This document shows, in pieces, positions 18,468 to 37,328 of a stretch of 64,000 nt of DNA. Source of the stretch: Patescibacteria group bacterium (GTDB taxonomy: Bacteria > Patescibacteriota > Patescibacteriia > JACRDY01). The translations under genes were made by a program, and so were the position numbers. The stretch covers positions 18,710-82,709 of the forward strand of contig JBAZLA010000001.1 in the NCBI GenBank assembly GCA_041650515.1, in the 5' to 3' direction. The stretch's first letter is position 1; every line of letters starts with the position of its first letter. The notes under the pieces are model-generated. The model was not told where the DNA came from. It saw nothing but the letters and a program-made list of their open reading frames with translations, and did no database searches.

Positions 18468-19790
18468 TTATTTGATTTCACAAACAGTATACAAATATTT
18501 ACCGCTCGGCGTTGGATCAATCTGATCAACAAAATTCCATTTAGTCCGGCAGTCAGCACCCATAAATAATTTAATTTTTTCTTCAATTCCTCGCATCTGG
18601 CTAGAGTTAGCCTCACCAACTATCTTTAACTCTACTAAATTATATTCTTTCTGGATTAATTGAAATTTTTTGATCCAATCTCTAAAAAATAACTGCTGAA
18701 TGATAAAATGAGTATGTTTTAATCCACCACTTTGAGTCTTAAAATAACCTAGGGTCCTACCAACAACATTATGTAAATTTAAATAAGATTTAGTCCGACT
18801 AAAATTATAATAAACCCCCGGTTGCGCTACGTCGCCCACTTCATATCGGATCAACGGCATCGAAAAATTATCCAAACAAGTAACAACTACTCTGCCCATA
18901 CCATCTCTCAAATCACTAATTTCAACTAGATGACGCCAGAAAAAAACTTGTAAATCAGAGTCGATTTTATCCTGAAAAGCAACTGCCCCTAATTCACGTG
19001 AACCGTACTGATTATAAACTGGACAATTGAAAGCCAGCTCAATTGACGATTTTATCTCCGGGTACAATGGACCAATACTAGTGACAATATATTTAGGAGA
19101 ATATAACTTGATATTATTAGCTGAAACAAATTTAGAAAATTCATATGTCGAGTCAACATAAGTCCAATAACTGACCGGTTTGAAGTTATTATTTAGCTCA
19201 ACTAATTCTTTCATTTTGTCAGAAGAAAAATTATAAGAATTTAAGAACCTCCTATTGTAAAGCCAATTTATGCAACGATCTCTAAGAGCTAAATTACCCT
19301 TGATAATATCCCGATCCGAGCCCCAAAGTTTAATTTCCTTGTCGCCTAAAGATTTACCTAATATTTCATTAAAATGAATCTTGGTAGCAATATTACTCTC
19401 ATCATAATAATGATCCTGTAAAAATTTTACCGGCTCACCAGTCGAACCGCCAGAAGTGTTTTGATAAAATTTTCTCTTTTGGTAGTCATCGGAATATAGA
19501 TTAGCTCCTTCTTGACGGATAATATCCTTAGTCAAAAGCGGTATCTGATTAAAGTTATCCAAATTAACCTGACCATTATCAACTACGCCGCTTTCAGACA
19601 AAATCTTATGGTAATAAGGAACGTGGTTATAGGCGTGAAGTAAAATTTCCTTTAATTTATCTTGCTGGTATTGCTGTTGTTTTGCCCCAGACATTTTTTC
19701 GAAACCATGCAGTAATCTCAAATTGGCCGGAATCTTGCTCCCGCTTAAATAAAACAAAAAGTAAATTATCGGCCTACGCCAGTTAAACAT
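18468..19790 (-). CDS. CapK/PaaK-family adenylate-forming enzyme (phenylacetate-CoA-ligase-like), paralog 1
   Basis: TSGGSTGEPVKF P-loop-like motif and PaaK-like length. Confidence 0.7.
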   Translation of the reverse strand: MFNWRRPIIYFLFYLSGSKIPANLRLLHGFEKMSGAKQQQYQQDKLKEILLHAYNHVPYYHKILSESGVVDNGQVNLDNFNQIPLLTKDIIRQEGANLYSDDYQKRKFYQNTSGGSTGEPVKFLQDHYYDESNIATKIHFNEILGKSLGDKEIKLWGSDRDIIKGNLALRDRCINWLYNRRFLNSYNFSSDKMKELVELNNNFKPVSYWTYVDSTYEFSKFVSANNIKLYSPKYIVTSIGPLYPEIKSSIELAFNCPVYNQYGSRELGAVAFQDKIDSDLQVFFWRHLVEISDLRDGMGRVVVTCLDNFSMPLIRYEVGDVAQPGVYYNFSRTKSYLNLHNVVGRTLGYFKTQSGGLKHTHFIIQQLFFRDWIKKFQLIQKEYNLVELKIVGEANSSQMRGIEEKIKLFMGADCRTKWNFVDQIDPTPSGKYLYTVCEIK

Positions 19791-19801: not shown

Positions 19802-21097
19802 TTATTTGACTTCGCTATAAGTGTAAAAATATTTCCCACTCTTTGAAGGGTTAATCTGATCAACAAAATTAAAATCCACACAACAATTCTGGCCAAAAAG
19901 AACTTTAATTTTATCCTTTATATTATCAATATCTTGATTGTTCGGTTCGCTAGCCAATACCACGTTGCAAATAATATAACTGCGATCTTTTTGAATCATT
20001 TGAAACTTTTTGATCCAATCTTTAAACCAAAACTGCCTAACTAAAATCCGAGCATTAATTATTTGCCCGCTCTCTGTTTTGAAATGAGAAATGGTTCGAC
20101 CAGTGACATCATCAAAAACTTTGATTAAATTATGATTATTAAAATGGCTAGCGGTGGGCGGAATAGCCGTATCACCAATTTTATATCTGATAATGGGCAT
20201 AGTAAAATTAACTAATAAAGTTACGACTACCTCGCCATCAATAACTTCTAAATAATGCAACGCTGGAAAGCCGTATAGTCCTTTATTTTGCTCAAGCTCA
20301 ATAGCGACACCGCCAACCTCCATTGAACCATATTGATTATAAACTGGGCAATGAAAAGCTTCTTGTGCTACCTGCCGAATCTCGGGGAAAAGGGTGCCGG
20401 CCGTGGAGATAATGAATTTAGGGGAATAAACTGACAAATTATTTTTTTTAATATAATTGGAAATAACATCTAAAGACTCAGCATAAGCCCACATTGAAAC
20501 CGGCTTAACTTTATTGATTGTCGCAATAAAACTAGCTAATTTTTGGTCGTCATATCTAAAAAAATTGAGAATCGTTCGATTGTAAAGAAAATTGATTATT
20601 CTCTCTTTCCAACTTAAAGAATTACGAAAAATATCGCGTTCCGATCCCCAAATTATTATTTCTGGTTCGCCAATTTTTTTGCCATAAATTTCGTGGTAAA
20701 AAATTTTTAAGGCAATACCCACTAACTCCCAATACTCTTGATCCTGTAAAAATTTTACCGGCTCACCAGTCGAACCGCCAGAAGTGTTTTGATAAAATTT
20801 TCTCTTTTGGTAGTCATCGGAATATAAGTTAGCTCCTTCTTGACGGATAATATCCTTAGTCAAAAGCGGTATCCGATTAAAGTTATCCAAATTAACCTGA
20901 CCATTATCAACTACGCCGCTTTCAGACAAAATCTTATGGTAATAAGGAACGTGGTTATAGGCGTGAAGTAAAATTTCCTCCAGTGCCGATCTTTGATCGA
21001 CCAAAGACATCCGACGCAATCTTTTTAAATTATCTGGAACTTTACTGCCAGTAATATACCAGAGGAAATAAATTATTATCTTACGCCAATTAAACAT
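19802..21097 (-). CDS. CapK/PaaK-family adenylate-forming enzyme, tandem paralog 2
   Basis: Shares a roughly 239-bp block, about 99% identical, with paralog 1 (19451-19689 against 20740-20978). Confidence 0.7.
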   Translation of the reverse strand: MFNWRKIIIYFLWYITGSKVPDNLKRLRRMSLVDQRSALEEILLHAYNHVPYYHKILSESGVVDNGQVNLDNFNRIPLLTKDIIRQEGANLYSDDYQKRKFYQNTSGGSTGEPVKFLQDQEYWELVGIALKIFYHEIYGKKIGEPEIIIWGSERDIFRNSLSWKERIINFLYNRTILNFFRYDDQKLASFIATINKVKPVSMWAYAESLDVISNYIKKNNLSVYSPKFIISTAGTLFPEIRQVAQEAFHCPVYNQYGSMEVGGVAIELEQNKGLYGFPALHYLEVIDGEVVVTLLVNFTMPIIRYKIGDTAIPPTASHFNNHNLIKVFDDVTGRTISHFKTESGQIINARILVRQFWFKDWIKKFQMIQKDRSYIICNVVLASEPNNQDIDNIKDKIKVLFGQNCCVDFNFVDQINPSKSGKYFYTYSEVK

Positions 21098-23154: not shown

Positions 23155-24123
23155 TTACTGCCTATTTATTTTATACCAACTGACAAATTTGTCCATGCCC
23201 TCTTCAATCGTCGTTTTGGGCTGATAACCTAACAATTTCTGGGCCTTTCTAATGTCAGCATAGGTAATATCAACGTCGCCCGGCTGCATTGGATATTGCT
23301 TAATATTAGCCTTTTTACCTAACAAACCCTCAACTATGGCAATAAAATGGCTCAACACCACCGGTTGGTTATTACCCAAATTGATTATCTCGTAACCGAA
23401 ATCTTTATCCAAACAGGCCACCACCCCGCTGACAATATCTTGGATATAGGTATAATCACGCTTAGTATCACCTTGACCAAATCTTTTTACTTCCTGACCC
23501 TGATCAATCCACTGGGTAAAAAGATAGGGCGCCATATCGGGACGACCGCGCTCACCATAGACAGTAAAAAAACGCAGGCCGATACAATTTAAACCAAACA
23601 AATGATGGTAGGTGTGAGCCAAAAGTTCCATGGCTTTTTTGGTCGCCGCGTAAGGTGAAATTGGATTATCAACTGGATCGGTTTCGCTAAAAGGAATTTT
23701 TTTGTTATTGCCATAGACTGATGACGACGAGGCAAAGATAAAATCTTTAATACCATTTTGCCGACACATTTCCAAGAGATTAGCTGTGCCCTCGACATTC
23801 ACTTTTTGATAAAGCAATGGATCGGCAATCGATGGCCGAACACCCGCCCGAGCCGCTAGATGAATAACCTTATCAAACTTATTAGTAAAAACCGATTTTA
23901 AAAAATCTAGGTCAGTAATATCGCCACGAAGCAGATGATGATTACTCTTACCTGAATTAATCGCTACATTTTGCTCCTTAAACGCCGGATTATAATAATC
24001 ATTAAAGTTATCCAAACAAAAAACTTCGTGGCCTTGATTAACCAAATAATCACAAACGTGAGAACCAATGAAACCAGCGCCGCCGGTAACTAAAACACGC
24101 ATATTATTAAATCTAAATGTCAA
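23155..24123 (-). CDS. NAD-dependent sugar-nucleotide epimerase, probably a UDP-glucuronate 4-epimerase
   Basis: GGAGFIGSH Rossmann motif and YxxxK. Sits adjacent to ugd. Confidence 0.8.
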   Translation of the reverse strand: MTFRFNNMRVLVTGGAGFIGSHVCDYLVNQGHEVFCLDNFNDYYNPAFKEQNVAINSGKSNHHLLRGDITDLDFLKSVFTNKFDKVIHLAARAGVRPSIADPLLYQKVNVEGTANLLEMCRQNGIKDFIFASSSSVYGNNKKIPFSETDPVDNPISPYAATKKAMELLAHTYHHLFGLNCIGLRFFTVYGERGRPDMAPYLFTQWIDQGQEVKRFGQGDTKRDYTYIQDIVSGVVACLDKDFGYEIINLGNNQPVVLSHFIAIVEGLLGKKANIKQYPMQPGDVDITYADIRKAQKLLGYQPKTTIEEGMDKFVSWYKINRQ

Positions 24124-24227
24124 AATCCCAATGTCAAATCAATATCAAATGATTAAAAGTCAAAAAAAATAATTATTTTGGATTTTGGATTTGATTTGAC
24201 ATTTGACCTTTGGATTTTGGCATTATA
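24124..24227. repeat. Long imperfect AT-rich palindrome between ugd and the epimerase
   Basis: aaatgtcaaaatcccaatgtcaaatcaa ... ttgatttgacatttgacctttggattttggcat. Confidence 0.6.
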
Positions 24228-25514
24228 TTACCTTCCAACACTCAAATATTTAAATCCTAACTTGGCCAATTCCGCCGGATCAAACATATTTCGACCATCA
24301 ATAATCAAGGGGTTTTTTATTAAACTCTTTAACTTCTGCCAATCCGGATTCTTAAACTCGTCCCATTCAGTAATAATTAACAAACAATCAACGTCGGCAG
24401 CGGCAGCGTATTTATCCGAACAGACTTCTACCTTAGGTGACAGATATCTCTGGGCATTAACCGCTGCTTCGGGGTCATAAACTTTAACTTGGGCCTCATT
24501 TTCGATCGCGCGATCAATAATCTCCAGAGCGACTGACTCACGAACATCATCAGTGTTGGGCTTAAATGCTAGCCCCCAAACACCAATTTTTTTGCCCGCT
24601 AAATCGCCAAGTTGATCTTTAATTTTTTGGAACAAAAGCCACTTCTGATTGTTGTTAACTTCAATCACCGCCCGGAGTAATTGGAAGGGATAGCCATGGC
24701 GACCGGCAATCTGATGCAACGCCCGGACGTCTTTAGGGAAACAACTGCCGCCGTAGCCGATACCAGCTTGTAAAAATTTGTGGCCAATCCGACTGTCTAA
24801 GCCCATTCCCTCCGCCACTTTTTCCACATCCGCTCCAACGCTCTCGCAAACATTGGCAATCTCATTAATAAAAGAGATTTTGGTAGCCAAAAAAGCATTA
24901 GAAGCATATTTAATCATCTCCGCGCTCGCTGGCGTGGTAAAAACTTTGGGACAATTAAAATTTTCATAAAGTTTATTCATCAACTCTTCACTCCTTTTTG
25001 AACTACAACCAACAACAATCCGGTCCGGCTGACGAAAATCTTCAATCGCTGAACCCTCGCGCAAAAATTCAGGGTTAGAAACAATATCAAACTCACCAGT
25101 ATAAAATTTGGCAATTTCTTTTCTAACTCGCTGCGCTGTGCCCACCGGCACCGTGCTTTTATCAATTACAACAACGTAATGATCCAAATTTTTACCAATT
25201 GCTTCCGCCGCGGTCATAACTTGGCTTAAATCAGCTTCACCGTTCTCTTTGGGTGGCGTACCCACCGCGATAAAAACTAGCTCGACATCCTTTAAAAAAT
25301 CTTTGAGCGAAGTGGAAAACATCAGCCGACCAGACTCAATATTTCTTTTTAAAATCTCTTCCAAACCCGGCTCAAAAAAAGGCACCTGATTGCTTTGGAG
25401 CTTTTTAATTTTGTTTTCATCAATATCAACGCAAGTCACTTGGTTATCTAGGTCAGCCAAACAAACGCCGGTCACTAAACCGACATAACCAGTACCAATA
25501 ACGACGATTTTCAT
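24228..25514 (-). CDS. ugd: UDP-glucose 6-dehydrogenase
   Basis: Translation MKIVVIGTGYVGLVTGVCLA... with the GGSCFPKD catalytic Cys motif. Confidence 0.9.
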   Translation of the reverse strand: MKIVVIGTGYVGLVTGVCLADLDNQVTCVDIDENKIKKLQSNQVPFFEPGLEEILKRNIESGRLMFSTSLKDFLKDVELVFIAVGTPPKENGEADLSQVMTAAEAIGKNLDHYVVVIDKSTVPVGTAQRVRKEIAKFYTGEFDIVSNPEFLREGSAIEDFRQPDRIVVGCSSKRSEELMNKLYENFNCPKVFTTPASAEMIKYASNAFLATKISFINEIANVCESVGADVEKVAEGMGLDSRIGHKFLQAGIGYGGSCFPKDVRALHQIAGRHGYPFQLLRAVIEVNNNQKWLLFQKIKDQLGDLAGKKIGVWGLAFKPNTDDVRESVALEIIDRAIENEAQVKVYDPEAAVNAQRYLSPKVEVCSDKYAAAADVDCLLIITEWDEFKNPDWQKLKSLIKNPLIIDGRNMFDPAELAKLGFKYLSVGR

Positions 25515-25665
25515 AATTTTAAATAATTAAATCTAAATTCCGACATCCAAACTCGCCAGATACTTATTCTATTTGAGTGCGAATTGATTGATCTTAATGC
25601 CCGGTGACTACGGCTTAATTTTGGCAGTCCTACACTCTGATTCTGATAATGAATCCGCGAATCTG

Positions 25666-25694
25666 TTGACAAATAAATCTTTATCTGTTACTAT
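25666..25694 (+). promoter_or_regulatory. Sigma70-like promoter TTGACA-17-TACTAT driving the small GC-rich gene
   Basis: Consensus -35 element, 17-nt spacer, TACTAT -10 element, then AAGGAGGG SD at 25729-25736. Confidence 0.5.
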
Positions 25695-25740
25695 AAAAAA
25701 TTCTAAATGTCTTTAATTCGTCTAAGATAAGGAGGGCATC

Positions 25741-26019
25741 TTGATACAAGTAGGAAGCACCGTGCGAATAAAGAGTCAGGAGGAGATCCAATCTCTTTGT
25801 GTATGGTCTGACCATTTGCTCTGTGATCCGGATTTGCCTCGGATTGATTTCTGTAGAACTGAGGATATCAGCAGCGGAAGCGTCAAAGCTGAAGGCATGG
25901 AGATTCATTGCGGGAAAACGACAACGATCGCGGCGGAAGACCGGGATGGTGGCTTTCGCTTGGCGATCGATGACAGGCGTCACTGTTGGTCAGCCAAGTG
26001 GCTGGAAGAAGTCGTATAG
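25741..26019 (+). CDS. Hypothetical 92-aa protein on the opposite strand to its neighbours; GC-rich, TTG start, strong SD, own promoter and terminator
   Basis: MIQVGSTVRIKSQEEIQSL... has no family recognised. A self-contained expression unit. Confidence 0.45.
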   Translation: MIQVGSTVRIKSQEEIQSLCVWSDHLLCDPDLPRIDFCRTEDISSGSVKAEGMEIHCGKTTTIAAEDRDGGFRLAIDDRRHCWSAKWLEEVV

Positions 26020-26047
26020 CCTCGCACTCGATGCTCACAACGCCCTT

Positions 26048-26078
26048 GCCTAGATGGAAACGTCTAGGCAATTTTTTA
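26048..26078 (+). terminator. Rho-independent terminator of the 92-aa gene
   Basis: gcctagatggaaacgtctaggc followed by aatttttt. Confidence 0.65.
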
Positions 26079-26109
26079 AATTTTAAAATGCAATAATATC
26101 TAATAAATA

Positions 26110-27369
26110 TTATGTACCGATTTCCCAACTCGTCAAATACTTCCGCTGCGCTGGTGTTAATTTATCAATATTAATCTTCATTGAAGCGAGTTTCATTCTG
26201 GCTACTTTATATTCTAATTCTGTCGGTAGATAGTGAACTTTATCACCCAATTTGCCATGGTTTTTAACAACATATTCCGAAGCTAACGCTTGAGTGGCAA
26301 AACTCATATCCATGACACAAGCCGGATGGCCTTCAGCCGCCGCTAGATTAATTAACCGACCTTCGGCTAACAAATTGATTTTATGGCCATTGCGCAAAGT
26401 GTATTCATCAACAAAGTTACGGACATTTTTACGAACTTTGACCGCCATTTTCTTAAGCGCCGGAATATCAATTTCCACATCAAAATGACCAGAATTGCAA
26501 ACTATCGCCCCGTCTTTCATTATTTTAAAATGCTCCCGACGAAGAACCGCAACATCACCGGTCAGGGTGCAAAACAGATCGCCTATCTTCGCCGCCCGAC
26601 TCATCGACATCACTTCAAAACCATCCATCGCCGCTTCAATGGCTTTAATTTCATCCACCTCAGTGACAATTACTTTGGCGCCCATCCCCCGCGCTCGCGA
26701 GGCAAAGCCGCGGCCGCACCAACCATAACCCGACACCACAACGTACTTGCCAGCCAATAGAATATCAGTCGCCCGGATAATACCATCAACAGTTGATTGG
26801 CCGGTGCCATAGCGATTATCAAACAGATTTTTGGTTTTAGCATCATTAACGGCAATTACTGGCAAAAGCAACCTACCCGCTCGCTCCATCGCTTTTAATC
26901 TGATAACCCCAGTCGTCGTTTCTTCCATACTGCCCAAGATATTCTTGGCCCAATCTCTATAGCCAGAATGCAAAAGCGAAATTAAATCCGCGCCATCATC
27001 CATTGTTACTACTGGCCGATGAACCAAAGCAGCTTTTAAATTTTGATAATAGCTAGCGCGATTTTCACCACAAACCGCAAAAGTGGGAATCTTATATTCT
27101 TTAACCAAGGCCGCTGCGACATCATCTTGGGTGGATAAGGGGTTAGAAGCACAAAGTAAAATATCAGCGCCGCCGGCTTTGAGTGTGCGGACTAAATTAG
27201 CCGTCTCGGCGGTGACATGTAGACAAGCTGACATCCTCTTACCTCGGAGCGGTTTAGTCCGAGAAAAACTGTCTCTAATCTGTTGCAAAACCGGCATATC
27301 GTGGTTGGCCCACTCGATGCGTTTTTTACCAACGCTGGCTAATTTTAAATCTTTGACATGGTACTTCAT
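26110..27369 (-). CDS. ahcY: Adenosylhomocysteinase
   Basis: Full-length SAH-hydrolase signature with an NAD-binding GYGWCGRG motif. Confidence 0.95.
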   Translation of the reverse strand: MKYHVKDLKLASVGKKRIEWANHDMPVLQQIRDSFSRTKPLRGKRMSACLHVTAETANLVRTLKAGGADILLCASNPLSTQDDVAAALVKEYKIPTFAVCGENRASYYQNLKAALVHRPVVTMDDGADLISLLHSGYRDWAKNILGSMEETTTGVIRLKAMERAGRLLLPVIAVNDAKTKNLFDNRYGTGQSTVDGIIRATDILLAGKYVVVSGYGWCGRGFASRARGMGAKVIVTEVDEIKAIEAAMDGFEVMSMSRAAKIGDLFCTLTGDVAVLRREHFKIMKDGAIVCNSGHFDVEIDIPALKKMAVKVRKNVRNFVDEYTLRNGHKINLLAEGRLINLAAAEGHPACVMDMSFATQALASEYVVKNHGKLGDKVHYLPTELEYKVARMKLASMKINIDKLTPAQRKYLTSWEIGT

Positions 27370-27388
27370 AATTTAATGATATTAATGG

Positions 27389-27483
27389 GTAGTATGCAGT
27401 ATGCGGTATACAGTATGCAAGGGTTGAGTGCCACAGTTAGTGAAAAATAAGCCCTGCATACTGCATACTGACCCCTGCATACT
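27389..27483. repeat. Hairpin element with AGTATGC heptamer arms, between ahcY and pfkB
   Basis: gtatgcagtatgcggtatacagtatgcaagggtt ... aagccctgcatactgcatactgacccctgcatac. Confidence 0.8.
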
Positions 27484-27488
27484 AATTT

Positions 27489-28424
27489 TTATAATTTCTC
27501 TTTAAAATTTTCCCGATACCGCTTTCCCAACTCCGACCAAGTAAATGAATGTGTCTGAGTGCCATACTTTTCAACGGTATAAACCGCCACCAACCCGGCT
27601 AACCGACCAGCTTTAGCTAAAGGCCAGCCCATCAACAAACCTTTGATCAAACCCGCCCGATAAGCATCGCCAGCACCAGTCGGGTCGCAGGTATTTTGGG
27701 GTTTAGCTGGAGGAATTTTTATCTTTTTACCTTGATGATAAATCTCCGAGCCTTGGCTACCTTTAGTAATGACTAGAATTTGAGTTAATTGGGCTAAACG
27801 TTTTTGATTAACTCTTAATCGCCGGCTAATCAACTGAATTTCATAATCATTACCAATTAAAACTTTAGATCCCTTAACGGCCGGCTTCAGTTCAACTGCG
27901 CTAAATAATGGCGTCACCTGACCCGGATCAAAAATATAAGGTACTTTTATTCGCCGATAAATTTTAGCATATTCTAACATTCTTGTCTTGTCATCAGGGG
28001 AGATAATGGCTAAATTTGGCTGTTTGACTTTCCTAACTATCGTCGGGTAATTTTTGACTACTGGACCGCCATAAAAAGCCGTCAGCTGGTTATCATCCTG
28101 ATCAGTAATAATCTGCGCCGTGGCGGTTAAATGGCCTCTAACTTTTTTGACCAGAGACAAATCAATCTTTTTACTTTTTAACCAATTTTTATACTTAGTA
28201 AAATCTTCACCAACCACACTAAGAATTGTCGACCGTTCTCTGAGTAAGGACAGATTATAAGCAATATTACCAGCTGTGCCACCAAAGCTTTCTTTTAATC
28301 CTTTAACTACAAAACAAACATTAAGAATATGAATCTTGTTTGGTAAAATATGATCGCCAAAACGACCTGGAAAATCCATTATCCGATCATAAGCGAGCGA
28401 ACCTGAAACTAAAATTTTAGACAT
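27489..28424 (-). CDS. PfkB-family carbohydrate/nucleoside kinase, plausibly an adenosine kinase
   Basis: GG motif and C-terminal DPTGAGDAYRAG anion-hole motif. Confidence 0.8.
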   Translation of the reverse strand: MSKILVSGSLAYDRIMDFPGRFGDHILPNKIHILNVCFVVKGLKESFGGTAGNIAYNLSLLRERSTILSVVGEDFTKYKNWLKSKKIDLSLVKKVRGHLTATAQIITDQDDNQLTAFYGGPVVKNYPTIVRKVKQPNLAIISPDDKTRMLEYAKIYRRIKVPYIFDPGQVTPLFSAVELKPAVKGSKVLIGNDYEIQLISRRLRVNQKRLAQLTQILVITKGSQGSEIYHQGKKIKIPPAKPQNTCDPTGAGDAYRAGLIKGLLMGWPLAKAGRLAGLVAVYTVEKYGTQTHSFTWSELGKRYRENFKEKL

Positions 28425-28430
28425 AAAACC

Positions 28431-28480
28431 GATGTCCGCTGTTCGCTAATGGCTCGCGAAATGCGAACCGCGAACCGCGG
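28431..28480. repeat. Short hairpin with GCGAACCGCGGACAGC-type arms (CGAACCG heptamer family)
   Basis: tgtccgctgttcgc...gcgaaccgcgaaccgcggacagc. Confidence 0.7.
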
Positions 28481-28484
28481 ACAG

Positions 28485-29186
28485 CTATTTAATTAACCCC
28501 TGCTTTCTCAAATATATTTCCGCCCGTTTTAAGTCATCCGGATAGCCGATGGGCAACCAATAATCAGTTTGGACGATTTTAACTGGATAACCATTAACCA
28601 TTTTAACGACTGTTTGTGGCAAGCCAAATTCTTTACCATCCTTAATCGGCGCTAAACTGTATTTAAAAACATTCTCATCCAAAACATAAAGGGCAGAATT
28701 AACTAGGCACTTAGTCCCAGGCATAAGTTCGGTTTCAACAATATCAATCAAATTACCAGCCTCATTAATCATCAAGGCGCCATAATTACGCAATTCTTCC
28801 GCCACAACTTCTTTAGCTAAGATACAGCGCTCTTGCGCTAAACATCGAACGACATCTTTGGCTTGATAAATATCATCCCCCATCAAAACTAAAAAGCGGC
28901 CCTTCAGTAATCCCCGACAACGCCATAGAGCATCGCCGGTACCTAATAATTCTGGCTGAATAACATAACTAATCTGGCGACCATCATATTCATTACCAAA
29001 ATATTTTTTGAGCTGCTCACCCAAATAACCCACCACCAAAATTACTTCATCAATTTCTTTAGGTAATTGCTCAATACTGTAGGCTAACAATGGCTTGCCT
29101 TGCACCGGCAGCATTGGTTTGGGTACTTCGTAAGTTAGGGGCCGCATTCGTACACCGGCACCAGCGGCTAGAATCACTGCTTGCAT
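28485..29186 (-). CDS. Sugar-phosphate nucleotidyltransferase (NTP_transferase family)
   Basis: MQAVILAAGAGVRMRPLT...KPML motif. Confidence 0.85.
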   Translation of the reverse strand: MQAVILAAGAGVRMRPLTYEVPKPMLPVQGKPLLAYSIEQLPKEIDEVILVVGYLGEQLKKYFGNEYDGRQISYVIQPELLGTGDALWRCRGLLKGRFLVLMGDDIYQAKDVVRCLAQERCILAKEVVAEELRNYGALMINEAGNLIDIVETELMPGTKCLVNSALYVLDENVFKYSLAPIKDGKEFGLPQTVVKMVNGYPVKIVQTDYWLPIGYPDDLKRAEIYLRKQGLIK

Positions 29187-32100
29187 TATTTTACTACTAT
29201 ATTAATCAACCGCCCGGGAACAAAAATCACTTTAACTATTTCTTTACCAGTTAAATAACTTTTTACTTTTGTATCCACTAAGACTAACTCTTTAGCCTCG
29301 GTTTCGCTAATATCCGCTTTGACTTGAATATTGGTTCGCATTTTGCCGTTAATCTGGATCACCAAAGTGATTTCTTCTTCCTTAACTAACTCCGGATCAT
29401 ACTTGGGCCAGCTCTGGCAAAAAATACTTTTTTGGTGACCAAGCGTTTGCCACAACTCTTCGGCTAAGTGGGGCGAAAACGGTGCCAAAATTTTTAAAAA
29501 CAATTCCAAATTTTCCTGACTGACTTCTTTGGCTTCTTGAAAACCATTGACCAAAATCATCATGGCCGAAATCGCGGTATTATAGCGCATGTTTTCAATA
29601 TCCTCAGTAACTTTTTTGATTGTTTGATGAACTAATTTGTCGCCTTGTACCTTGCTACTTGTTACTTTTTCTTGAAGCAACCAAACTTTATCCAAAAACC
29701 GCCGCACACCATTAATCCCTTTGGTACTCCAGGGCTTGGTGTCTTCAAGCGGCCCCATAAACATTTCATAGAGTCGCATGCTGTCCGCGCCAAAATCGCG
29801 AACCACATCATCGGGGTTAATCACATTACCACGCGATTTGGACATTTTTTGGCCGTCTTCGCCCAAGATCATGCCTTGGTTGCGAAGTTTGAGAAACGGT
29901 TCAGCAAAATTAATATAACCCAGATCATACAAAACTTTGGTAAAAAACCGCGCATACATCAAATGCAGTACCGCATGTTCCGCTCCGCCAACATAGAGAT
30001 CAACTGGTAGCCATTTATTAATTTCTTTCTGGCTAGCAAACTCTTTTTTGTTCTCTGGATCAGTGTAACGGAAATAATACCAAGATGAACAAACAAAAGT
30101 ATCCATAGTATCGGATTCGCGTTTGGCGGGAGCACCACAAACCGGACATTTAACATTGTGAAATTTTTTAGAATTGACCAACGGCGACTCACCAGTTGGT
30201 TTAAAATCAACATCATCTGGCAATAAAACTGGTAAATCTTTCTCTGGCACCGGGACTAAACCCGAATTAGAGCCTAAAGAAAATTCTTCTAAAATTTCTG
30301 GGAAAGACAACATTCCCACCCGGCGATTAGAATGACCACGGTTATTAAATATTCTCACCCGGGCGCCCAAAGGCTGATAATCTTTTTCGACCGCTAACGG
30401 AATATAAGGATCGTTGTCTGAAAGATAAATAACAATTTCTTTGGCTAGTTTTTTTACTCGGACTAAATCAATTTTAGCTTGATTAAAATGCTTGGCCGCC
30501 TCAATACTATTCACCTCGGCACCGGCCGTTCGCATATTGCTCCAATTCTCCTCACTCTGAGACGGACCGGTCGGCGCGACTAAAATTAATTTTTCTATTG
30601 GTAAACCAGTTACCTGAATATATTGGCAAACAGCCGGGGCGCTCAGGCTGTGAGCGACGATAAAAATTTTATCTTCTTTTTTAAAATTGAGACTCTGCAG
30701 CGCCGCCACCCACTCGGCAATTGTCGGCACGCTAGCATTAGGCAAAATTGGAATTAAAACTTCATAGCCGCTATTTTCTAGTTGCTCTTTGAGCCAAGGA
30801 AACCAATTATCGTTAGCGTGAGCATTAAGACCGTGGGTTAATAAAACCTTAGGTTTTTTCTGAGCACAATGATCACAATAAATCATCGGGATGGGCGCGC
30901 CCCAATAGCGCTGGCGCGATACCAGCCAATCGCGAAGTTTGTACTGCGTTTTTAACTGACCACCGACTTTTTGCGTAATTTTTTTCTTGGCTTCTTCACT
31001 GGTTAAACCATCAAACTCGCCGGAATTAATCATGGTGCCAGTGCCAACCCAACACTTATAAGCTAAATCGCTACTTAAATGGCCATAAGCGCCCGGGCTG
31101 GCCATGCCAGATTCTATCGGACTGGCTGCCATTAAACTTTCTGGTTTAATCACTTCAATTATCGGCAAACTAAATTTTTTGGCGAACTCATAGTCTCGTT
31201 CATCGTGCGCCGGCACCGCCATGATTGCTCCAGTGCCATAGCCAGTCAAGACATAATCAGCCACAAAAATCGGTATTTCTTTATTGGTTGCCGGATTGAT
31301 GGCTCTAATACCCTTTAATTCCACACCGGTCTTGGCTTTAGCTAAATCGGTTCTTTCGATTTCATTCTTCTTTTGGGCCAACTTAATGTATTGCTCAACT
31401 TCTTCCCAATTTTTAATTGCCAATTTTAAATTATTAATCAAACCATGCTCTGGCGCCAGCACCATATAAGTTACGCCAAAAAGTGTATCCGGCCGCGTGG
31501 TAAAAACTTTAATTTTTACTGGTTCGCGAACCGCGGACAGCGAACCGCGGACAGCGAATTCTAACTCTGCTCCCTCACTCCGGCCGATCCAATTTTTTTG
31601 CATCAGCTTAATCGGCTCGGGCCAATCAATTGTATCCAAATCATTGAGCAGTCTATCAGCATACTGAGTCACTTTAAAAAACCACTGCTCTAGGTCTTTT
31701 TGCACCACTTCGTTGTGACAACGTTCGCATTGACCGGCGACCACCTGCTCATTAGCTAGTACTGTCTGACAAGAATTACACCAATTAACTTTGGCTTTCT
31801 TTTTGTAAGCTAAACCGTTTTTATAGAGCAACAAAAAAAACCACTGCGTCCATTTGTAATATGCTGGATCAGAAGTTTTAATTTCGCGTGACCAGTCATA
31901 ACTCAGGCCCAGCGACTGGATCTGGCGTCGAAAAGTTTCAACACTTTTGTCAGTCGTTATCTGTGGATGAACTTTTTGCTTGATGGCAAAATTTTCCGCT
32001 GGTAGGCCAAAAGCATCCCAACCCATCGGGTGTAAGACATCATAACCATTGAGTCGCAGATAACGGGAATAAATATCCGTCGCGGTGTAACCCTCAGGAT

Positions 32101-32251
32101 GACCAACGTGTAAACCAGCGGCTGACGGATAAGGAAACATATCCAAAATATATTTTTTCTTTTGGGGACTCTTGGGCGCTTGGTTAATTTTCTCCTTAGC
32201 CCAATATTTCTGCCACTTGGCTTCTATCTCTTGATGAATATACTTATCCAT
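29186..32251 (-). CDS. leuS: Leucyl-tRNA synthetase carrying an inserted alpha/beta-hydrolase domain (YdeN/RBBP9 family, about 210 aa) in the zinc-knuckle region
   Basis: HVGH (HIGH) motif, TTRPDT editing motif, KMSKS motif. The insert VLLTHGLNAHANDNWFPWL...IVAHSLSAPA...LVAPTGP lies between CDHC and VPVPEKDLPVLLP. Confidence 0.95.
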   Translation of the reverse strand: MDKYIHQEIEAKWQKYWAKEKINQAPKSPQKKKYILDMFPYPSAAGLHVGHPEGYTATDIYSRYLRLNGYDVLHPMGWDAFGLPAENFAIKQKVHPQITTDKSVETFRRQIQSLGLSYDWSREIKTSDPAYYKWTQWFFLLLYKNGLAYKKKAKVNWCNSCQTVLANEQVVAGQCERCHNEVVQKDLEQWFFKVTQYADRLLNDLDTIDWPEPIKLMQKNWIGRSEGAELEFAVRGSLSAVREPVKIKVFTTRPDTLFGVTYMVLAPEHGLINNLKLAIKNWEEVEQYIKLAQKKNEIERTDLAKAKTGVELKGIRAINPATNKEIPIFVADYVLTGYGTGAIMAVPAHDERDYEFAKKFSLPIIEVIKPESLMAASPIESGMASPGAYGHLSSDLAYKCWVGTGTMINSGEFDGLTSEEAKKKITQKVGGQLKTQYKLRDWLVSRQRYWGAPIPMIYCDHCAQKKPKVLLTHGLNAHANDNWFPWLKEQLENSGYEVLIPILPNASVPTIAEWVAALQSLNFKKEDKIFIVAHSLSAPAVCQYIQVTGLPIEKLILVAPTGPSQSEENWSNMRTAGAEVNSIEAAKHFNQAKIDLVRVKKLAKEIVIYLSDNDPYIPLAVEKDYQPLGARVRIFNNRGHSNRRVGMLSFPEILEEFSLGSNSGLVPVPEKDLPVLLPDDVDFKPTGESPLVNSKKFHNVKCPVCGAPAKRESDTMDTFVCSSWYYFRYTDPENKKEFASQKEINKWLPVDLYVGGAEHAVLHLMYARFFTKVLYDLGYINFAEPFLKLRNQGMILGEDGQKMSKSRGNVINPDDVVRDFGADSMRLYEMFMGPLEDTKPWSTKGINGVRRFLDKVWLLQEKVTSSKVQGDKLVHQTIKKVTEDIENMRYNTAISAMMILVNGFQEAKEVSQENLELFLKILAPFSPHLAEELWQTLGHQKSIFCQSWPKYDPELVKEEEITLVIQINGKMRTNIQVKADISETEAKELVLVDTKVKSYLTGKEIVKVIFVPGRLINIVVK

Positions 32252-32253
32252 AA

Positions 32254-32514
32254 TTAGTTTAATTCCTGCTCCGCTTGTCTTAATTCTGCTAAACGTTTTT
32301 TGATCGCCTCAACATCATGCGGCTTAATGATATAATGATCAGGCATTTCTATGTCCTGAAAAATTACTTCAGCTTTATCAGCTAAATCAGGTAAATGCCG
32401 AACTAACTCTGTTTGGAGTTGAGATTTGGGCATATTAACAATTTCCATTAAAAACCGCTCCTGGGGACTTATTTTTTCGGTGTCACGGCCAGTTTCAGCA
32501 GTAGACATATTCAT
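32254..32514 (-). CDS. Hypothetical 86-aa protein upstream of leuS
   Basis: ORF only. Tightly coupled to leuS with a 2-nt gap. Confidence 0.35.
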   Translation of the reverse strand: MNMSTAETGRDTEKISPQERFLMEIVNMPKSQLQTELVRHLPDLADKAEVIFQDIEMPDHYIIKPHDVEAIKKRLAELRQAEQELN

Positions 32515-32583
32515 ATGATTAAAATAAGAATTAATTTATCTAAAATAAGCTAAATTTTAGCCTTAAATAAGAGTATTATTAGT

Positions 32584-33210
32584 TTAGCGGTTTTTAGCCT
32601 TTTTTGCAACCTCTTTAATCGGCCGAAAGCACTGGCGATGCAAGGGGCAAAGGCCGTATTTTTGGATCATTTCCTGATGAAGCTTGGTGCCATAACCTTT
32701 GTGCTGCTCAAAGCCGTATTCTGGGTATATTTTGGCTAAATTTAGCATTAAATCATCACGATAAACCTTGGCAATAATCGAAGCGGCCGCAACTGAAATC
32801 GAAACTTGATCCCCGCGAACCACGACTTTAAACGGCGTCCGAAAAGCAATCCGGCCAACATAGTCGGTCAAAATATAGTCGGGCTTAATTTGTAGGTTCT
32901 GGATTGCCCGCTTCATCGCGGTTTTATTAGCCATTTGCAAGCCCAGTTGATCAATTTCTTGGCTGCTGACTTCACCAATCGCCCAGGCAAGGCAATTCTC
33001 TTTTAGCCAACTACTTAGCTCTTGCCGCCGCTTTGGGGTTAATCGTTTAGAATCGCGAATTTCTTCACTAACAAAATTAGGAACATCTAAAATTATGGCG
33101 CCAGCCACCAACGGACCCGCCCATGGCCCCCGGCCCGCTTCATCAATGCCAGCGATCAAAGAATAACCTTGGCTGAGTAATTCGTTTTCGAGTTGGAAGG
33201 TTGGATTCAT
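32584..33210 (-). CDS. rnhB: Ribonuclease HII
   Basis: GIDEAGRGP active-site motif. Confidence 0.9.
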   Translation of the reverse strand: MNPTFQLENELLSQGYSLIAGIDEAGRGPWAGPLVAGAIILDVPNFVSEEIRDSKRLTPKRRQELSSWLKENCLAWAIGEVSSQEIDQLGLQMANKTAMKRAIQNLQIKPDYILTDYVGRIAFRTPFKVVVRGDQVSISVAAASIIAKVYRDDLMLNLAKIYPEYGFEQHKGYGTKLHQEMIQKYGLCPLHRQCFRPIKEVAKKAKNR

Positions 33211-33302
33211 GGTTAGATTATAACAAGAAAGCCAAAAAACAAAAAAGTAAAAAATGCGGGAATAAAAAATGGGAGGCGGACGACCGCGCTCCCGGGATGC
33301 AC

Positions 33303-33845
33303 TTATTCGGCTTTTTTGCTCAGGGTGATCCTCTTACACCCCTTGATGGCCGTGAGCCGATGGCGGCGTGGGATGGTCTTGGTGACCTTGTTTAGGACAG
33401 CCTCAAACTGCCCGGTGTCCCTGCCAACGCAACGGATAAAGGCCAGGTCATGATTCGCGACGAGTGTTCCAGCATCAACATCCAACACTGCCGCGAAAGT
33501 CAACACCGCCTCAAGCGGTATATCCTGCCAATCAGTAGATTCTCTCTCAATTGGAGAATCAGCTTCAAATTCCTCGGTGATGGTGGCGATCAAATCACCT
33601 CGAAGCACTGCCCAAAAAACAAAACCATCACCCAGTTTAGCTTCGATGCCAGCGTCGTCGAGAAGACGACAAAAATTTTCCACCTCTCGGAAGGTCAAAC
33701 TGCCGTACTTGTAACCCACTGACTTCACCGACGGCAAACCTTCCTGATCAGCCAAAAAGGCTAAAATCCTACGGCCGTGAGCTTTTGCCACTCTCGCCAG
33801 CTCTTCCAAATCCGCCAAACGGTAGTCTCTCCGATACTCTCTCAT
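33303..33845 (-). CDS. Hypothetical 180-aa protein; GC-rich, strong SD (AAAGGAGGA), own terminator
   Basis: Composition is clearly different from its neighbours. No family recognised. Confidence 0.45.
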   Translation of the reverse strand: MREYRRDYRLADLEELARVAKAHGRRILAFLADQEGLPSVKSVGYKYGSLTFREVENFCRLLDDAGIEAKLGDGFVFWAVLRGDLIATITEEFEADSPIERESTDWQDIPLEAVLTFAAVLDVDAGTLVANHDLAFIRCVGRDTGQFEAVLNKVTKTIPRRHRLTAIKGCKRITLSKKAE

Positions 33846-34013
33846 AGCATCCTCCTTTCCGACTAGTTGCCGGAAATCCGATTTGCCACCTACCCGGTAG
33901 CTGGGATCTGCTTTGTTTGAGCAGTATATTTATTCCTAACACAAATAATATAAAAAGTCAATGATAACAAAAAAACAAGATTTGTTCTCTTGCTTTCTTA
34001 TTTTCTTGTTTTT

Positions 34014-34304
34014 TTATTCTTTTTTCTCCGCACTAGCAATAATTGAATCAAAAAATTTTTCTACTGAATCATCGCCAAAAAAATCAACTTTTGATTTTAT
34101 CCCATCACATCCACTACCAATTAACACATGAAAAGCCAAGTAATCGCGAGCATCAGAATATTTAGCCAATAAGTCTCTAGCCAAATCATCAAATTTCGTC
34201 TGAGCTTCTTTGCGACCAATCATGTCACAAATCCGCTCATTCTTTGTCTTGAGATGCTCTAACATCATTTGTTGTTCTAACTCGGGATTTTCTGGATTAG
34301 TCAT
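34014..34304 (-). CDS. Hypothetical 96-aa acidic protein immediately downstream of gdhA
   Basis: ORF only. Confidence 0.35.
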   Translation of the reverse strand: MTNPENPELEQQMMLEHLKTKNERICDMIGRKEAQTKFDDLARDLLAKYSDARDYLAFHVLIGSGCDGIKSKVDFFGDDSVEKFFDSIIASAEKKE

Positions 34305-34308
34305 ATAT

Positions 34309-35634
34309 CTAATAGCCTCTAATTTTCATTGCTACCGCCACCCGCTTGATGCCCAAAATAAAAGCAGCGGTGCGCAGATCAATTTTCTTTTCTTTGGCGA
34401 TTGATTCAACACTAATAAAAGCTTTATCCATGACTACTTTTAGCCGTTTAGCCACTTCTTCTTCACTCCAATTTTCCCGATGCAGGTTTTGCAACCACTC
34501 AAAATAAGAAACCGTCACCCCGCCCGCATTAACCAAAACATCGGGGACAACAATTATCCCCCGCTTGTTTAATTTAACATCCGCTTCGGGCGTGGTTGGG
34601 CCATTGGCAATTTCCAAAATTACTTTAGCTTTGATCTTGCCGGCGTTTTGGGCCGTAATCTGATTTTCCAACGCCGCCGGGATCAAAATATCACACGGCA
34701 TTTCTAAAAGCTTGGCGCTAGCCATATGTTTATGTTCCACTTCATCACAAACCGAACCAGTGCAGTAATAACCATCAACCAAGCCTTTTTGTTTTTTAAT
34801 CTTCATTGTGCTTTCTGGGTGGAAAGAATCACCATTGGGTGAGTAGATACCGCCTTTAGAATCAGCTAAGCCAACTACACGGTAGCCAGCTCGATTAACC
34901 AGCTGAGCAATATGATAACCGGCATTACCAAAACCTTGGATAATCACTCGCAAACCACCTTTTGACTTTCGTACGGGCAAGTCGCGACTTGCCCCTGCTT
35001 TCATTTTCTTAACCACGTTTTCTAAAACATAGAACGCACCCTGAGCTGTCGCCGTATCGCGACCAAGCGACCCGCCGATTTCTACCGGTTTGCCGGTCAC
35101 AACGGCTGGTACTGGATAACCTTTAATTTTGGAGAACTCATCCATGATCCAAGCCATAATCTGCGGATTAGTATAAACATCGGGCGCCGGCACATCTTTA
35201 AGCGGGCCAATATATTCCTGAATCGCCTGAACATAGCCTCGAGTCATCCGTTCCAGCTCGCCAACGGACATTTTTTTGGGATCAACTTTGATCCCGCCTT
35301 TACCGCCGCCAAAGGGGATATCCACCACGGCGCATTTGACCATCATCCAAAAAGCCAAGGCCTTAACCTCATTAATATCCGATTGCGGATAATAACGGAT
35401 GCCACCCTTAAACGGACCACGAGCATCATTATACTGCACCCGATAGCCTTCAAAATTCTTGATCTGGCCATTATCCATCTTAACTGGCACAGTAAAATGT
35501 AACGCTCGCTTGGGTGAACGAAGTTTATCCAAAATCTCCGGATCAAGATCAAGATATTTGGCAGCCAAGTCTAGTTGTTTTAAAGCGTTGGTAAATGGGT
35601 TGGCAGTTCGCGGTTCGCGGTTCGCGGTTCGCAT
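34309..35634 (-). CDS. gdhA: Glutamate dehydrogenase
   Basis: Lys-Gly active-site region KGGIRY...GGGKGG. The first 12 codons, starting at the ATG at 35632-35634, lie within the (GCGAACC)n repeat and encode RTANREPRTANP. Confidence 0.9.
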   Translation of the reverse strand: MRTANREPRTANPFTNALKQLDLAAKYLDLDPEILDKLRSPKRALHFTVPVKMDNGQIKNFEGYRVQYNDARGPFKGGIRYYPQSDINEVKALAFWMMVKCAVVDIPFGGGKGGIKVDPKKMSVGELERMTRGYVQAIQEYIGPLKDVPAPDVYTNPQIMAWIMDEFSKIKGYPVPAVVTGKPVEIGGSLGRDTATAQGAFYVLENVVKKMKAGASRDLPVRKSKGGLRVIIQGFGNAGYHIAQLVNRAGYRVVGLADSKGGIYSPNGDSFHPESTMKIKKQKGLVDGYYCTGSVCDEVEHKHMASAKLLEMPCDILIPAALENQITAQNAGKIKAKVILEIANGPTTPEADVKLNKRGIIVVPDVLVNAGGVTVSYFEWLQNLHRENWSEEEVAKRLKVVMDKAFISVESIAKEKKIDLRTAAFILGIKRVAVAMKIRGY

Positions 35635-36120
35635 ATACAAAGTTTAGAAAATTTTAATATTGAATATTTTATACTAGTTTTATTAACTAATTAGCAAATA
35701 CAACTTTATGATGATTAAATCATACAAAGACCTACTCGTCTGGCAGGTAGGAATTGAGCTAGTAATAGCTACCTATGAGCTAACAGAGCAATTCCCGAAA
35801 AAAGAACAATTTGGACTAACCTCGCAGATTAGAAGAGCCTCAATCTCTATCCCATCTAATGTCGCCGAGGGTTATCAACGTAAAACTGATGGGGAACTTT
35901 TACGTTTCTTATTGATTGCTCTCGGTTCGGCCTCTGAACTAGAAACTCAACTTTTTTTAGCCAAAAAATTGAAAATGACATCCGAGGAATACTTTCTAAG
36001 AATAGATAATTTGTTAACACGAGTACTCCAGCTTACCAACTCTTTTATCAATAAACTACGCAAGGATACCGGGCGAACAGCGAACCGCGGCCAGCGAACC
36101 GCGGCCAGCGAACCGCAACA
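35595..36120. mobile_element. Inverted-repeat cassette carrying four-helix-bundle gene 2; left arm (GCGGTTC)x3-4, right arm (CAGCGAACCGCGGC)x3
   Basis: The flanks are reverse-complementary heptamer arrays. The cargo gene is antisense to both neighbours. Confidence 0.65.
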
Positions 36121-36133
36121 AACTAACCGCTGA
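35708..36133 (+). CDS. Four-helix-bundle protein of the 23S rRNA IVS family, copy 2
   Basis: MMIKSYKDLLVWQVG...IPSNVAEGYQRKT...ASELETQLFLAKKL is paralogous to the 5748..6104 product. The C-terminal 20 aa are encoded by the flanking repeat. Confidence 0.8.
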   Translation: MMIKSYKDLLVWQVGIELVIATYELTEQFPKKEQFGLTSQIRRASISIPSNVAEGYQRKTDGELLRFLLIALGSASELETQLFLAKKLKMTSEEYFLRIDNLLTRVLQLTNSFINKLRKDTGRTANRGQRTAASEPQQTNR

Positions 36134-37328
36134 CCTTTAAATATTGCTCCAGCCCCCGGGCAAACACCATCATCGCTTCTTTTAACTCCTTAGTATTCAA
36201 AACGTAAGCGATTCTAATTTCATTTTGGCCTTTGCCCGGCGTGGAATAAAAATCCTCGGCTGGCGTGACCATTACTGTTTTACCTTGATAATTAAATTTG
36301 GTCAACAGCCATTTGACTAAATCCTCACTATTTCGGACTGGCAACCCGACTATCAGATAAAAGGTGGCTTCCGGCTGGAATAAAGTTAACCCCGGTATTT
36401 TCTCAAGTTCACCATAAACAACATCGCGACGCCGGCGGTATTCTAAATTAAGCTTTTTAATATACTGCTTGCTATTTTTCAATACAGGCACAAAAGCCAA
36501 CTGCTCTAACGTGGGTGAAGAAAGCCGCGCCTGAGCGAATTTTAAAATATTAGCCATCAGCTCTTTATTCGACGAAATTAAACAGCCAACGCGAGAGCCA
36601 CAAGCCGAAAACTTTTTAGACACGCTGTCAGTAACAATCACCTGCTGACGAACGGCTGGAAAGTCCAACAAACTCGGTGCTCGCTGGCCAATAAAAGTTA
36701 GCTCACGGTAGGTTTCGTCAGCGATAATAAACAACCCGCGCTTTTTAGCAACTTTGACTAAAACACTTAATTCTTTTTTGCTGTAAATCCGGCCAGTCGG
36801 ATTATTAGGATTGATAATTACAATTGCTTTGGTCCGACGGGTAATCTTTTTTCTCAACTCCGCCGCGCTGGGTAGACTAAAATTATTATCTAGTTTTAAA
36901 GTGATCGGCACCAGCTTTACCCCAGTCATTTTGGCAAAACTTTTGTAGCTAGAATAACCTGGCTCAAAAATAATTATTTCATCACCCGGATCAGCCACGG
37001 CCAGCAAACTAAAAATAATTGCCTCACTGCCGCCAGTGGTGATCATAATATCTTCGGTCTTAACTCTGATTCCCCAATCAGCATAAAACTTTTGCCAGGC
37101 TTGCCGCGCGGTTAGGTAACCCAGTGATGGCGCGTAAGGAATTAATCTGTCTTTTTTCTGAAGTTTCAAAATCTCTTGCCAAACCGAAACCGGTGGCAAA
37201 ATATCGGGCTGACCAATATTAAGCTTAAAAATCTTAAGCCCTTTTTTTTCGGCTGCCTCAGCTAGGGGCAAAAATTTACGGATTGGCGAAGCAATGGTTT
37301 GTCGTGCCCGTTTAGAAGTTTGTAACAT
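36123..37328 (-). CDS. Class I/II PLP-dependent aminotransferase (Asp/Ala aminotransferase-like)
   Basis: NPNNPTG ... SVSKKFSACGSRVG carries the Lys-containing motif. Confidence 0.85.
   Translation of the reverse strand: MLQTSKRARQTIASPIRKFLPLAEAAEKKGLKIFKLNIGQPDILPPVSVWQEILKLQKKDRLIPYAPSLGYLTARQAWQKFYADWGIRVKTEDIMITTGGSEAIIFSLLAVADPGDEIIIFEPGYSSYKSFAKMTGVKLVPITLKLDNNFSLPSAAELRKKITRRTKAIVIINPNNPTGRIYSKKELSVLVKVAKKRGLFIIADETYRELTFIGQRAPSLLDFPAVRQQVIVTDSVSKKFSACGSRVGCLISSNKELMANILKFAQARLSSPTLEQLAFVPVLKNSKQYIKKLNLEYRRRRDVVYGELEKIPGLTLFQPEATFYLIVGLPVRNSEDLVKWLLTKFNYQGKTVMVTPAEDFYSTPGKGQNEIRIAYVLNTKELKEAMMVFARGLEQYLKVSG

Follow-up and report, generated by a model that had tools for sequence, protein, structure and literature searches.

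Heptamer-armed hairpins in the window

The window, i.e., the whole 64-kb stretch of DNA that was analyzed, is part of a 472,517-bp ENA contig, and was found to contain eight hairpins with heptamer arms: six that had been proposed in a first-pass annotation, and two more that were recovered by an inverted-repeat search (no strand is assigned to the hairpins themselves). Hairpin hp27389 (27389-27483) fills the gap between pfkB (stop at 27489) and ahcY (start at 27369), and consists of a 5′ arm of (YAGTATG)n, a 3′ arm of (CATACTR)n, and a center of about 35 nt with a small apical stem. The short, GC-rich hp28431 (28431-28484), with GTTCGC / GCGAACC units, is located between the stop of a nucleotidyl-transferase gene (28485) and the pfkB start (28424). 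The arms of hp6763 (6763-6869) are (TAGTACN)5; this hairpin is located immediately downstream of an intrinsic terminator (6874-6900), and 4 nt upstream of a tRNA-Thr(GGT) gene (6687-6758, minus strand). TACTAT motifs terminate the 3′ arm of the hairpin, and precede the tRNA 5′ end by 5 and 12 nt.

Arms of the AGTATGC type form hp37339 (37339-37432), and hp50378 (50378-50474). In the former, the upstream gene has its TAG stop codon (37431-37433) within an arm, with the next start codon 10 nt off, and the latter fills the gap between purF (stop at 50475) and purD (start at 50360). Hairpin hp41913 (41908-42026) combines AGTACNN arms with a long AT-rich center; the truB ORF continues through its left arm, which encodes the last ~10 codons, to a stop at 41943-41945, and the flanking genes are convergent. 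One of the two additional hairpins (24116-24224) is built of the AT-rich heptamers AAATGTC / AAAATCC and their complements, and fills the gap between UDP-glucose dehydrogenase and epimerase genes. The other, hp51972 (51972-52054), has (TTAAGAN)n arms, and separates the start of purF (51968) from a gene that ends at 52051, with a TAG stop codon again located within an arm.

Inspection of the six originally proposed loci revealed in each a left run of heptamers, a center of 20-60 nt, and a reverse-complementary right run. RNA folding z-scores, calculated against 200 dinucleotide shuffles per locus, were -10.1 (6759-6872), -7.5 (28425-28484), -7.1 (50374-50478), -6.2 (27385-27487), -4.75 (37335-37436), and -2.9 (41910-42030); all six fold far better than shuffles, and are imperfect hairpins, as first described. 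The arms had been described as 3 to 5 tandem heptamers of the AGTATGC, TAGTACN, and CGAACCG types, and were seen as such by TRF and by our own scan, which counted 15 period-7 arrays in the window versus 0-2 for each of the remaining periods between 4 and 12. Period 7 is thus specifically enriched. Inverted arm pairs were recovered at hp6763, hp27389, hp37339, and hp50378.

Independent Logan assemblies (sample SRR8542065) matched the window at 99.99-100% across hp6763, hp27389, hp28431, and one of the gene-carrying cassettes described below (cassette 1). Since four elements were reproduced in contigs assembled separately, from a second sample, the arrays are not assembly artefacts, a possibility that had been named at the outset. 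The best relatives of the pfkB gene beside hp27389 are Patescibacteria MAGs with 64-66% identity, and the NCBI record of the PF05635 proteins of the cassettes reads “Patescibacteria group bacterium”. A cyanobacterial source, at first suggested by the 41% GC and the heptamers, was rejected on the basis of this homology. Close strain variants were sought for presence or absence of the elements and for target-site duplication, and identical proteins were carried only by same-strain contigs; the nearest species for a strain comparison has only 64-66% pfkB identity.

Placement between genes

Seven of the eight hairpins are located between co-directional minus-strand genes. The cargo-less hairpins of this genome start 0-5 nt past a stop codon, and end 3-19 nt short of the next start. 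The first-pass placement in gaps between co-directional genes is accordingly correct except at 41913-42026, with its convergent neighbors and its truB-coding left arm. Hairpin hp6763 takes up the entire space between the intrinsic terminator and tRNA-Thr (6759-6872). Because no other room is left before the tRNA gene, any tRNA promoter would have to be inside the hairpin, and the tRNA-Thr promoter may be located there.

A role as terminator or attenuator, which had been offered as one reading of the hairpins, is unlikely. No U-tract follows the stem on the sense strand at any of the six originally proposed loci, and a terminator scan of 24000-43999 listed none of the five hairpins of that range, whereas ordinary intrinsic terminators are present elsewhere in the genome, at 6874-6900, 6225-6250, and 43703-43726. 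Since no U-tracts follow the stems on the transcribed strand, the hairpins are not canonical terminators.

A dispersed family with shared centers

The three AGTATGC hairpins could be aligned over their full length with 77% column identity, including the central GCAGGGG...CCAC...CCCTGC. The hairpin centers alone are more similar than shuffles (z 3.1-5.8), and this extends to comparisons of AGTATGC with TAGTACN hairpins. A second Patescibacterium from the same sample (L083) contains a hairpin with AGTACNN arms between cofD and glmS (7948-8035), and the motif CCCAACAAYGGTKGG is common to the centers of this hairpin and hp6763, in sense orientation, at different loci of different genomes. The sharing of non-repetitive centers across copies indicates that the hairpins are dispersed copies, rather than independent products of slippage, and their original description as a family is thus upheld, with loop motifs common across arm types and genomes. 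Compensatory changes among the three AGTATGC hairpins were found in only 3 of 35 pairs, a figure drawn from too few sequences for covariation.

PF05635 cassettes

The family PF05635 is 23S_rRNA_IVP (23S rRNA intervening-sequence protein), a four-helix bundle. Two cassettes in the window carry a PF05635 gene between inverted heptamer arrays. Cassette 1 (5629-6222, plus strand) is bounded by (AGTACNN)n at 5629-5665 and (NNGTACT)n at 6189-6222; its PF05635 gene (5748-6104; E = 1.6e-39) is antisense to its neighbors, and has its own terminator-like stem. Cassette 2 (35598-36116, plus strand) is bounded by (GGTTCGC)n at 35598-35632, and by (GCGAACC / GCGGCCA)n at 36073-36116; its PF05635 gene (35711-36133; E = 7e-35) runs antisense to the genes on either side, which encode an aminotransferase and a glutamate dehydrogenase. 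The first-pass statement that the hairpin units also flank these cassettes was found to hold for TAGTACN and CGAACCG, but the window contains no AGTATGC-armed cassette. The PF05635 protein of L083 is 81% identical to that of cassette 1, and its gene has other neighbors, TAGTACN arms, and a homologous sub-terminal spacer.

To extend the comparison beyond the window, JGI metagenomes were scanned with a PF05635 alignment, which yielded 80 loci, and 63 genes with usable flanks. Reverse-complementary period-7 arrays were present on both sides of 23 of the 63 PF05635 genes, and an array was present on at least one side in 42. Among control ORFs, such pairs bracketed none of 62 other ORFs in the same loci, and 5 of 970 ORFs in pfkB loci. 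The density of period-7 arrays was 2.97 per kb within 200 nt of PF05635 genes, compared to 0.17 per kb beyond 400 nt. Period-8 arrays were also enriched near PF05635 genes, by ~25-fold (0.81 versus 0.03 per kb). Inverted arrays with an 8-nt period were seen at L083:12029-12124. An Rfam search of the window matched only tRNA-Thr and no rRNA, and rRNA was detected in none of 20 heptamer-armed PF05635 cassettes. In the metagenomes, 34 of 46 PF05635 cassettes are co-directional with both neighbors, whereas both window cassettes are antisense.

Bracketed PF05635 genes were also found in annotated genomes of cultured bacteria, with the unit (TTAGCTG)n in Calothrix PCC 7716, (AGTCAGG)n in Nostoc punctiforme, (GGCAGAA)n in Stanieria, and (GGTTYAA)n in Riemerella. 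These findings show that inverted heptamer arrays specifically bracket PF05635 genes in at least three phyla: Patescibacteria, Cyanobacteriota, and Bacteroidota. In Xanthomonas campestris ATCC 33913, a GGGAATC array (622956-622983) lies between accB (XCC0517) and XCC0516, on one side only, and overlaps the XCC0516 start codon; it is number 15 in the supplement of Rehm et al. (PMC4692102). The pentameric crystal structure of the PF05635 protein XCC0516 is available as PDB entry 2GSC. On plasmid pANA02 of Anabaena sp. 90 (L171, 1340-2060), a PF05635 gene bracketed by (CAGGTGA)x10 and (CTGTCAC)n is located between cas6 and cas4 of a type I-D system, and looks like an insertion into the cas operon. 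PF05635 genes inside cas operons were noted by Zhang and Ye 2013 (PMC3936711); the inserted appearance of the bracketed Anabaena gene calls a Cas-associated reading of such genes into question.

PF13366 (GxxExxY) was considered as a second general cargo and rejected. There is one clear case (L003; see below), and three plasmid genes have no adjacent inverted heptamer arrays; one of these three, from Persicobacter, has only distant GGATTNN / AATCCNN arrays.

Relation to known elements

The closest parallel is provided by the intervening sequences (IVS) of 23S/16S rRNA, with which the present elements share complementary termini that form a long stem (a terminal inverted repeat of ~25-30 bp in the IVS), an optional PF05635 ORF within it, and a sporadic, selfish-looking distribution. 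In Coxiella, a PF05635 ORF is located in a 28-bp stem that is cut by RNase III (PMC4990558), and IVP ORFs also occur in CPR rRNA insertions (PMC11270868). The present elements differ in that they lie in intergenic gaps of protein-coding operons, and not in rRNA helices, consistent with the Rfam results above, and in that tandem heptamers make up their arms. For the IVS, excision by RNase III is documented (PMC4990558), whereas for the present hairpins it is only predicted.

In the strict sense, a MITE has target-site duplications and a transposase-bearing parent. Like MITEs and REP/REPIN sequences, the present elements are short, non-coding, hairpin-forming intergenic repeats with terminal inverted repeats, many copies (eight hairpins in 64 kb), and larger gene-carrying relatives; the only larger relatives seen bear PF05635 or, once, PF13366. 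However, base inspection revealed no recurrent direct duplication beside the eight hairpins and both cassettes, gene tables covering ~60% of the window listed no transposase domain, and the annotated parts of the window showed no RAYT transposase or REP association. The arms are, moreover, internally repetitive, and not conserved in sequence between lineages. With neither target-site duplications nor a recombinase or transposase partner, the case for mobility is the distribution of the elements. The suggestion that the hairpins are MITE-style derivatives of the cassettes is therefore partly supported, in that they form a family, share arm units with PF05635 cassettes of an architecture found across phyla, and occupy gaps that are either empty or filled in relatives, although either form may have given rise to the other; a MITE in the strict sense is not supported, given that no duplications and no transposase-bearing parent were seen, and that the cargo is a four-helix-bundle protein.

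Short tandemly repeated repetitive arrays of the STRR type, the TAACTGA repeats of Beggiatoaceae (MacGregor 2015, PMC4679880), and the GGGAATC repeats of Xanthomonas consist, as do the hairpin arrays, of tandem 7-nt units that are mainly intergenic and comprise several families per genome. Heptamer arrays of Xanthomonas and Nostoc were described by Rehm 2015 (PMC4692102), and the repeats of STRR-type systems change fast, in 7-nt steps (PMC4679880, PMC4692102). The present host is, however, a Patescibacterium, and not a heterocystous cyanobacterium as in the original definition of STRR, and the present arrays are inverted into hairpins, and associated with PF05635 genes. A limited literature search did not find this association stated. 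Heptamer repeats and IVS-like elements were known already; the present hairpins are set apart from them by the inverted pairing of heptamer arrays, and by the association with PF05635.

Paired sites on opposite strands were described in Geobacter metallireducens (Aklujkar 2009, PMC2700814), in classes 1-3, with 3-5 tandem 7-, 8-, or 9-mers separated by a variable distance, between genes such as proB/proA; the class 3 unit is MTYCTGA (reverse complement TCAGRAK). These resemble the present hairpins as opposite-strand pairs of 3-5 tandem short units between genes, but were read as IHF/HU global-regulator sites, were reported without cargo genes, and belong to another phylum.

A proposed selfish insertion family

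On balance, we lean towards the reading that the hairpins are cargo-less members of a selfish palindromic insertion family, built like the 23S rRNA IVS. We infer that they represent the ORF-less form of the PF05635-cassette design. The elements would be co-transcribed with the host operon, and the 25-35-bp stem would then be cut by RNase III, as IVS stems are; such a cut would remove the element at the RNA level, and separate the neighboring cistrons. By analogy, the RNase III step probably applies, as it fits both the anatomy of the hairpins and the IVS precedent (PMC4990558). The co-directional majority of the metagenomic cassettes would, like IVS, be transcribed from the host operon, and hairpins may be tolerated in operon gaps because their stem is processed. 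Replication slippage would allow the arrays to grow, shrink, and change their unit, while template switching, or selection for the stem, would keep the arms complementary. Counting against this reading are the missing target-site duplications and recombinase or transposase partner, the scant covariation, the antisense orientation of both window cassettes relative to their operons, the AT-rich cargo-less pairs that have no NAG core (see below), and the solo and in-frame arrays (see below), which fit general slippage equally well.

The pfkB-ahcY junction and possible host functions

Across Patescibacteria, pfkB and ahcY share a conserved junction. It measures 0-40 nt in many relatives (L005, L007, L012, L014, L015, L017, L019, L026, L031, L032, and L035), whereas in the window and in L004, L009, L010, L013/L040, and L024 it is filled by heptamer hairpins whose units are unrelated. 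The L001 junction contains a solo array, and in L003 a gene of the PF13366 nuclease fold is enclosed by (TACGAAT)n and the complementary array. A comparison of presence and absence in relatives, as had been recommended, thus found the orthologous gaps either empty or filled, in other species rather than in close strains. Palindromic elements of several kinds thus seem to favor this junction as a hot spot. Just downstream of pfkB, unrelated hairpins with the motif tgtcattgcgagc...gcaatgaca were seen in L011 (~11020-11180), L023 (~10960-11110), and L029 (~10920-10970).

The recurrence of hairpins at this junction in several distant lineages would also be expected if they served the host as RNA structures, i.e., as intercistronic stabilizers or processing signals, like REP in E. 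coli operons. They might, for instance, set the relative expression of neighboring genes by blocking 3′ exonucleases, by occluding the next ribosome-binding site, or by carrying a promoter, and we regard these routes, like a host-serving role as such, as doubtful. The exact fill of the operon gaps, and the position of hp6763, which must contain any tRNA-Thr promoter, agree with such a role. However, the short junctions show that 0-40 nt suffice in many relatives, the unit sequences vary between lineages, no heptamer hairpin was found in the tightly packed ribosomal-protein operon, and the same arms carry selfish-looking cargo genes.

Size classes, arm polarity, and the heptamer-binding idea

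In the pooled set, the gaps between paired arms fall into two size classes. Cargo-less pairs have a center of 7-105 nt, with a small apical stem, and cargo-size pairs have a center of 290-716 nt, usually with a PF05635 gene; at loci that were not chosen for PF05635, the cargo-less pairs are several-fold commoner. The arms mostly contain ~3.5-4.5 units, with a median of 28 nt. Of 72 inverted period-7 pairs, 44 have AG without CT in the 5′ arm unit, versus CT without AG in 4 (p = 1.5e-9), and GG prevails over CC by 27 to 4. Since a hairpin reads alike on both strands, this polarity is a property of the element, and not of gene orientation. The trinucleotide NAG recurs in each unit of the 5′ arm in most elements, and is present in the 5′ arm of 39 of 43 cargo-size pairs, and of 52 of the 72 pairs overall. 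An AT-rich composition with no NAG core was found in 14 of 29 cargo-less pairs; with about half of its members lacking NAG, this class may be heterogeneous. The STRR unit sequences of Mazel 1990 reportedly have CAG/TAG-containing cores as a rule. Stop codons in all frames were considered as the cause of TAG cores and rejected, since only part of the units carry TAG, and most carry CAG.

A regular NAG core in arms of ~3.5-4.5 units could also mean that the arrays are bound by an oligomeric protein, which would recognize one core in every 7 nt of nucleic acid. Such a binder, which we consider rather improbable in either of its variants, might act on DNA as a nucleoid protein, as was proposed for Geobacter, or on single-stranded RNA as a ring protein, with the hairpin switching between bound and paired states. 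HutP binds (UAG-N4)x3, and TRAP binds (G/U)AG repeats, which lends the idea a precedent. PF05635 crystal entries contain five chains each (2GSC, 2RLD), five four-helix bundles assemble in Xcc0516 according to Lin 2006, as cited in PMC10053308, and the paired tandem 7/8/9-mers of G. metallireducens were interpreted as regulator sites (PMC2700814). Against the idea, many cargo-less hairpins are devoid of NAG, and the sequence of PF05635 does not co-vary with the units beyond near-identical pairs. Array units differ at nearly every PF05635 locus, and proteins at 75% identity are found with unrelated units. Co-evolution of protein and unit was accordingly rejected: units are common only to pairs at ≥80% identity, which gives no support for sequence-specific recognition beyond NAG. 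A link between heptamer arrays and PF05635 pentamers is offered here purely as a hypothesis.

Slippage, and other repeats of the window

Some arrays of the window have no inverted partner. A solo (AGTACNN)4 array (43728-43760, minus strand) lies between the purH stop (43763) and the intrinsic terminator of purH (43703-43726), and another solo array follows a stop codon at L164:3767-3794. In the LeuRS gene, there is an in-frame array of GCGAACCGCGGACA x2.4 (31525-31558, minus strand); the encoded residues, AVRGSLSAVREP, belong to a variable loop that precedes the VFTTRPDT motif.

It is very unlikely that the hairpins are only microsatellite-like products of in-place replication slippage, which is known to favor 7-nt units, made palindromic via template switching; in that case there would be neither an element nor mobility, and a shared mutational bias would be all that connects them to the cassettes. 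In many bacteria, heptamers outnumber other long simple repeats (Mrazek 2007, as cited in PMC4679880), and the solo and in-frame arrays and the rapid turnover of units, with unrelated units at 75% protein identity, are in line with this, but slippage does not account for non-repetitive loop sequence common to copies across genomes and loci, for the 44-to-4 polarity of the 5′ arms, for the bimodal gap sizes, or for reverse-complementary array pairs that flank PF05635 genes ~70-fold more often than control ORFs.

Several further repeats were seen in the window. In-frame heptamer or 14-mer arrays also occur in PurL (59237-59266) and PurH (44716-44740), and the gene table lists a PF06821 Ser_hydrolase match within the 1021-aa LeuRS. 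A minus-strand ORF of 474 aa (55422-56846) encodes PurQ (GATase_5), apparently fused to a PurS-like sequence, the PurS part being assigned by inspection of the translation. In the region of this ORF (55404-56060), in-frame linkers are encoded by (CAAAAGT)n (KSKVKSQK) and (CCAACAG)n (SQQPTANSRQ), and a third array, (TACGAAT)n, overlaps the purC start codon. A GC-rich palindrome at 43572-43690, with 52-nt arms that are 81% complementary and have no heptamer periodicity, adjoins a terminator and the solo AGTACNN array; by its looks, it belongs to another family of repeats. The region from a terminator to cassette 1 (5331-5630) contains an (AGTCCAC)3 array, a ACAGCCATCAGCTA x2 array, and ~190 nt with no ORF or Rfam match, and might represent a decayed element or an RNA that has escaped annotation. 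A 241-bp segment is duplicated at 98.8% identity (19411-19651 and 20739-20979), inside two adjacent CapK_C-family genes.

Significance

Catalogues of heptamer repeats date back to 1990 for cyanobacteria, with Xanthomonas, Beggiatoaceae, and Geobacter added later; to our knowledge, no origin or function has been accepted for these repeats, and we know of no role for PF05635, a very abundant family with solved structures, outside diversity-generating retroelements. It is conceivable, though we hold it to be a long way from established and on present evidence unlikely, that STRR, the Xanthomonas GGGAATC arrays, the Geobacter paired sites, and the CPR hairpins are footprints of one unrecognized, cross-phylum class of element. 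Its signature would be inverted (NAGNNNN)n, and its usual passenger a pentameric, Avd-like PF05635 protein that putatively reads the arrays on RNA or single-stranded DNA, one subunit per unit, and might thereby aid the maintenance, processing, or spread of the element.

The association described here gives the heptamer-repeat puzzle and the PF05635 puzzle each a testable partner. It also advises caution against reading PF05635 genes in cas operons as Cas-associated. In the streamlined CPR genome that contains the window, the operon gaps are populated by empty hairpins.
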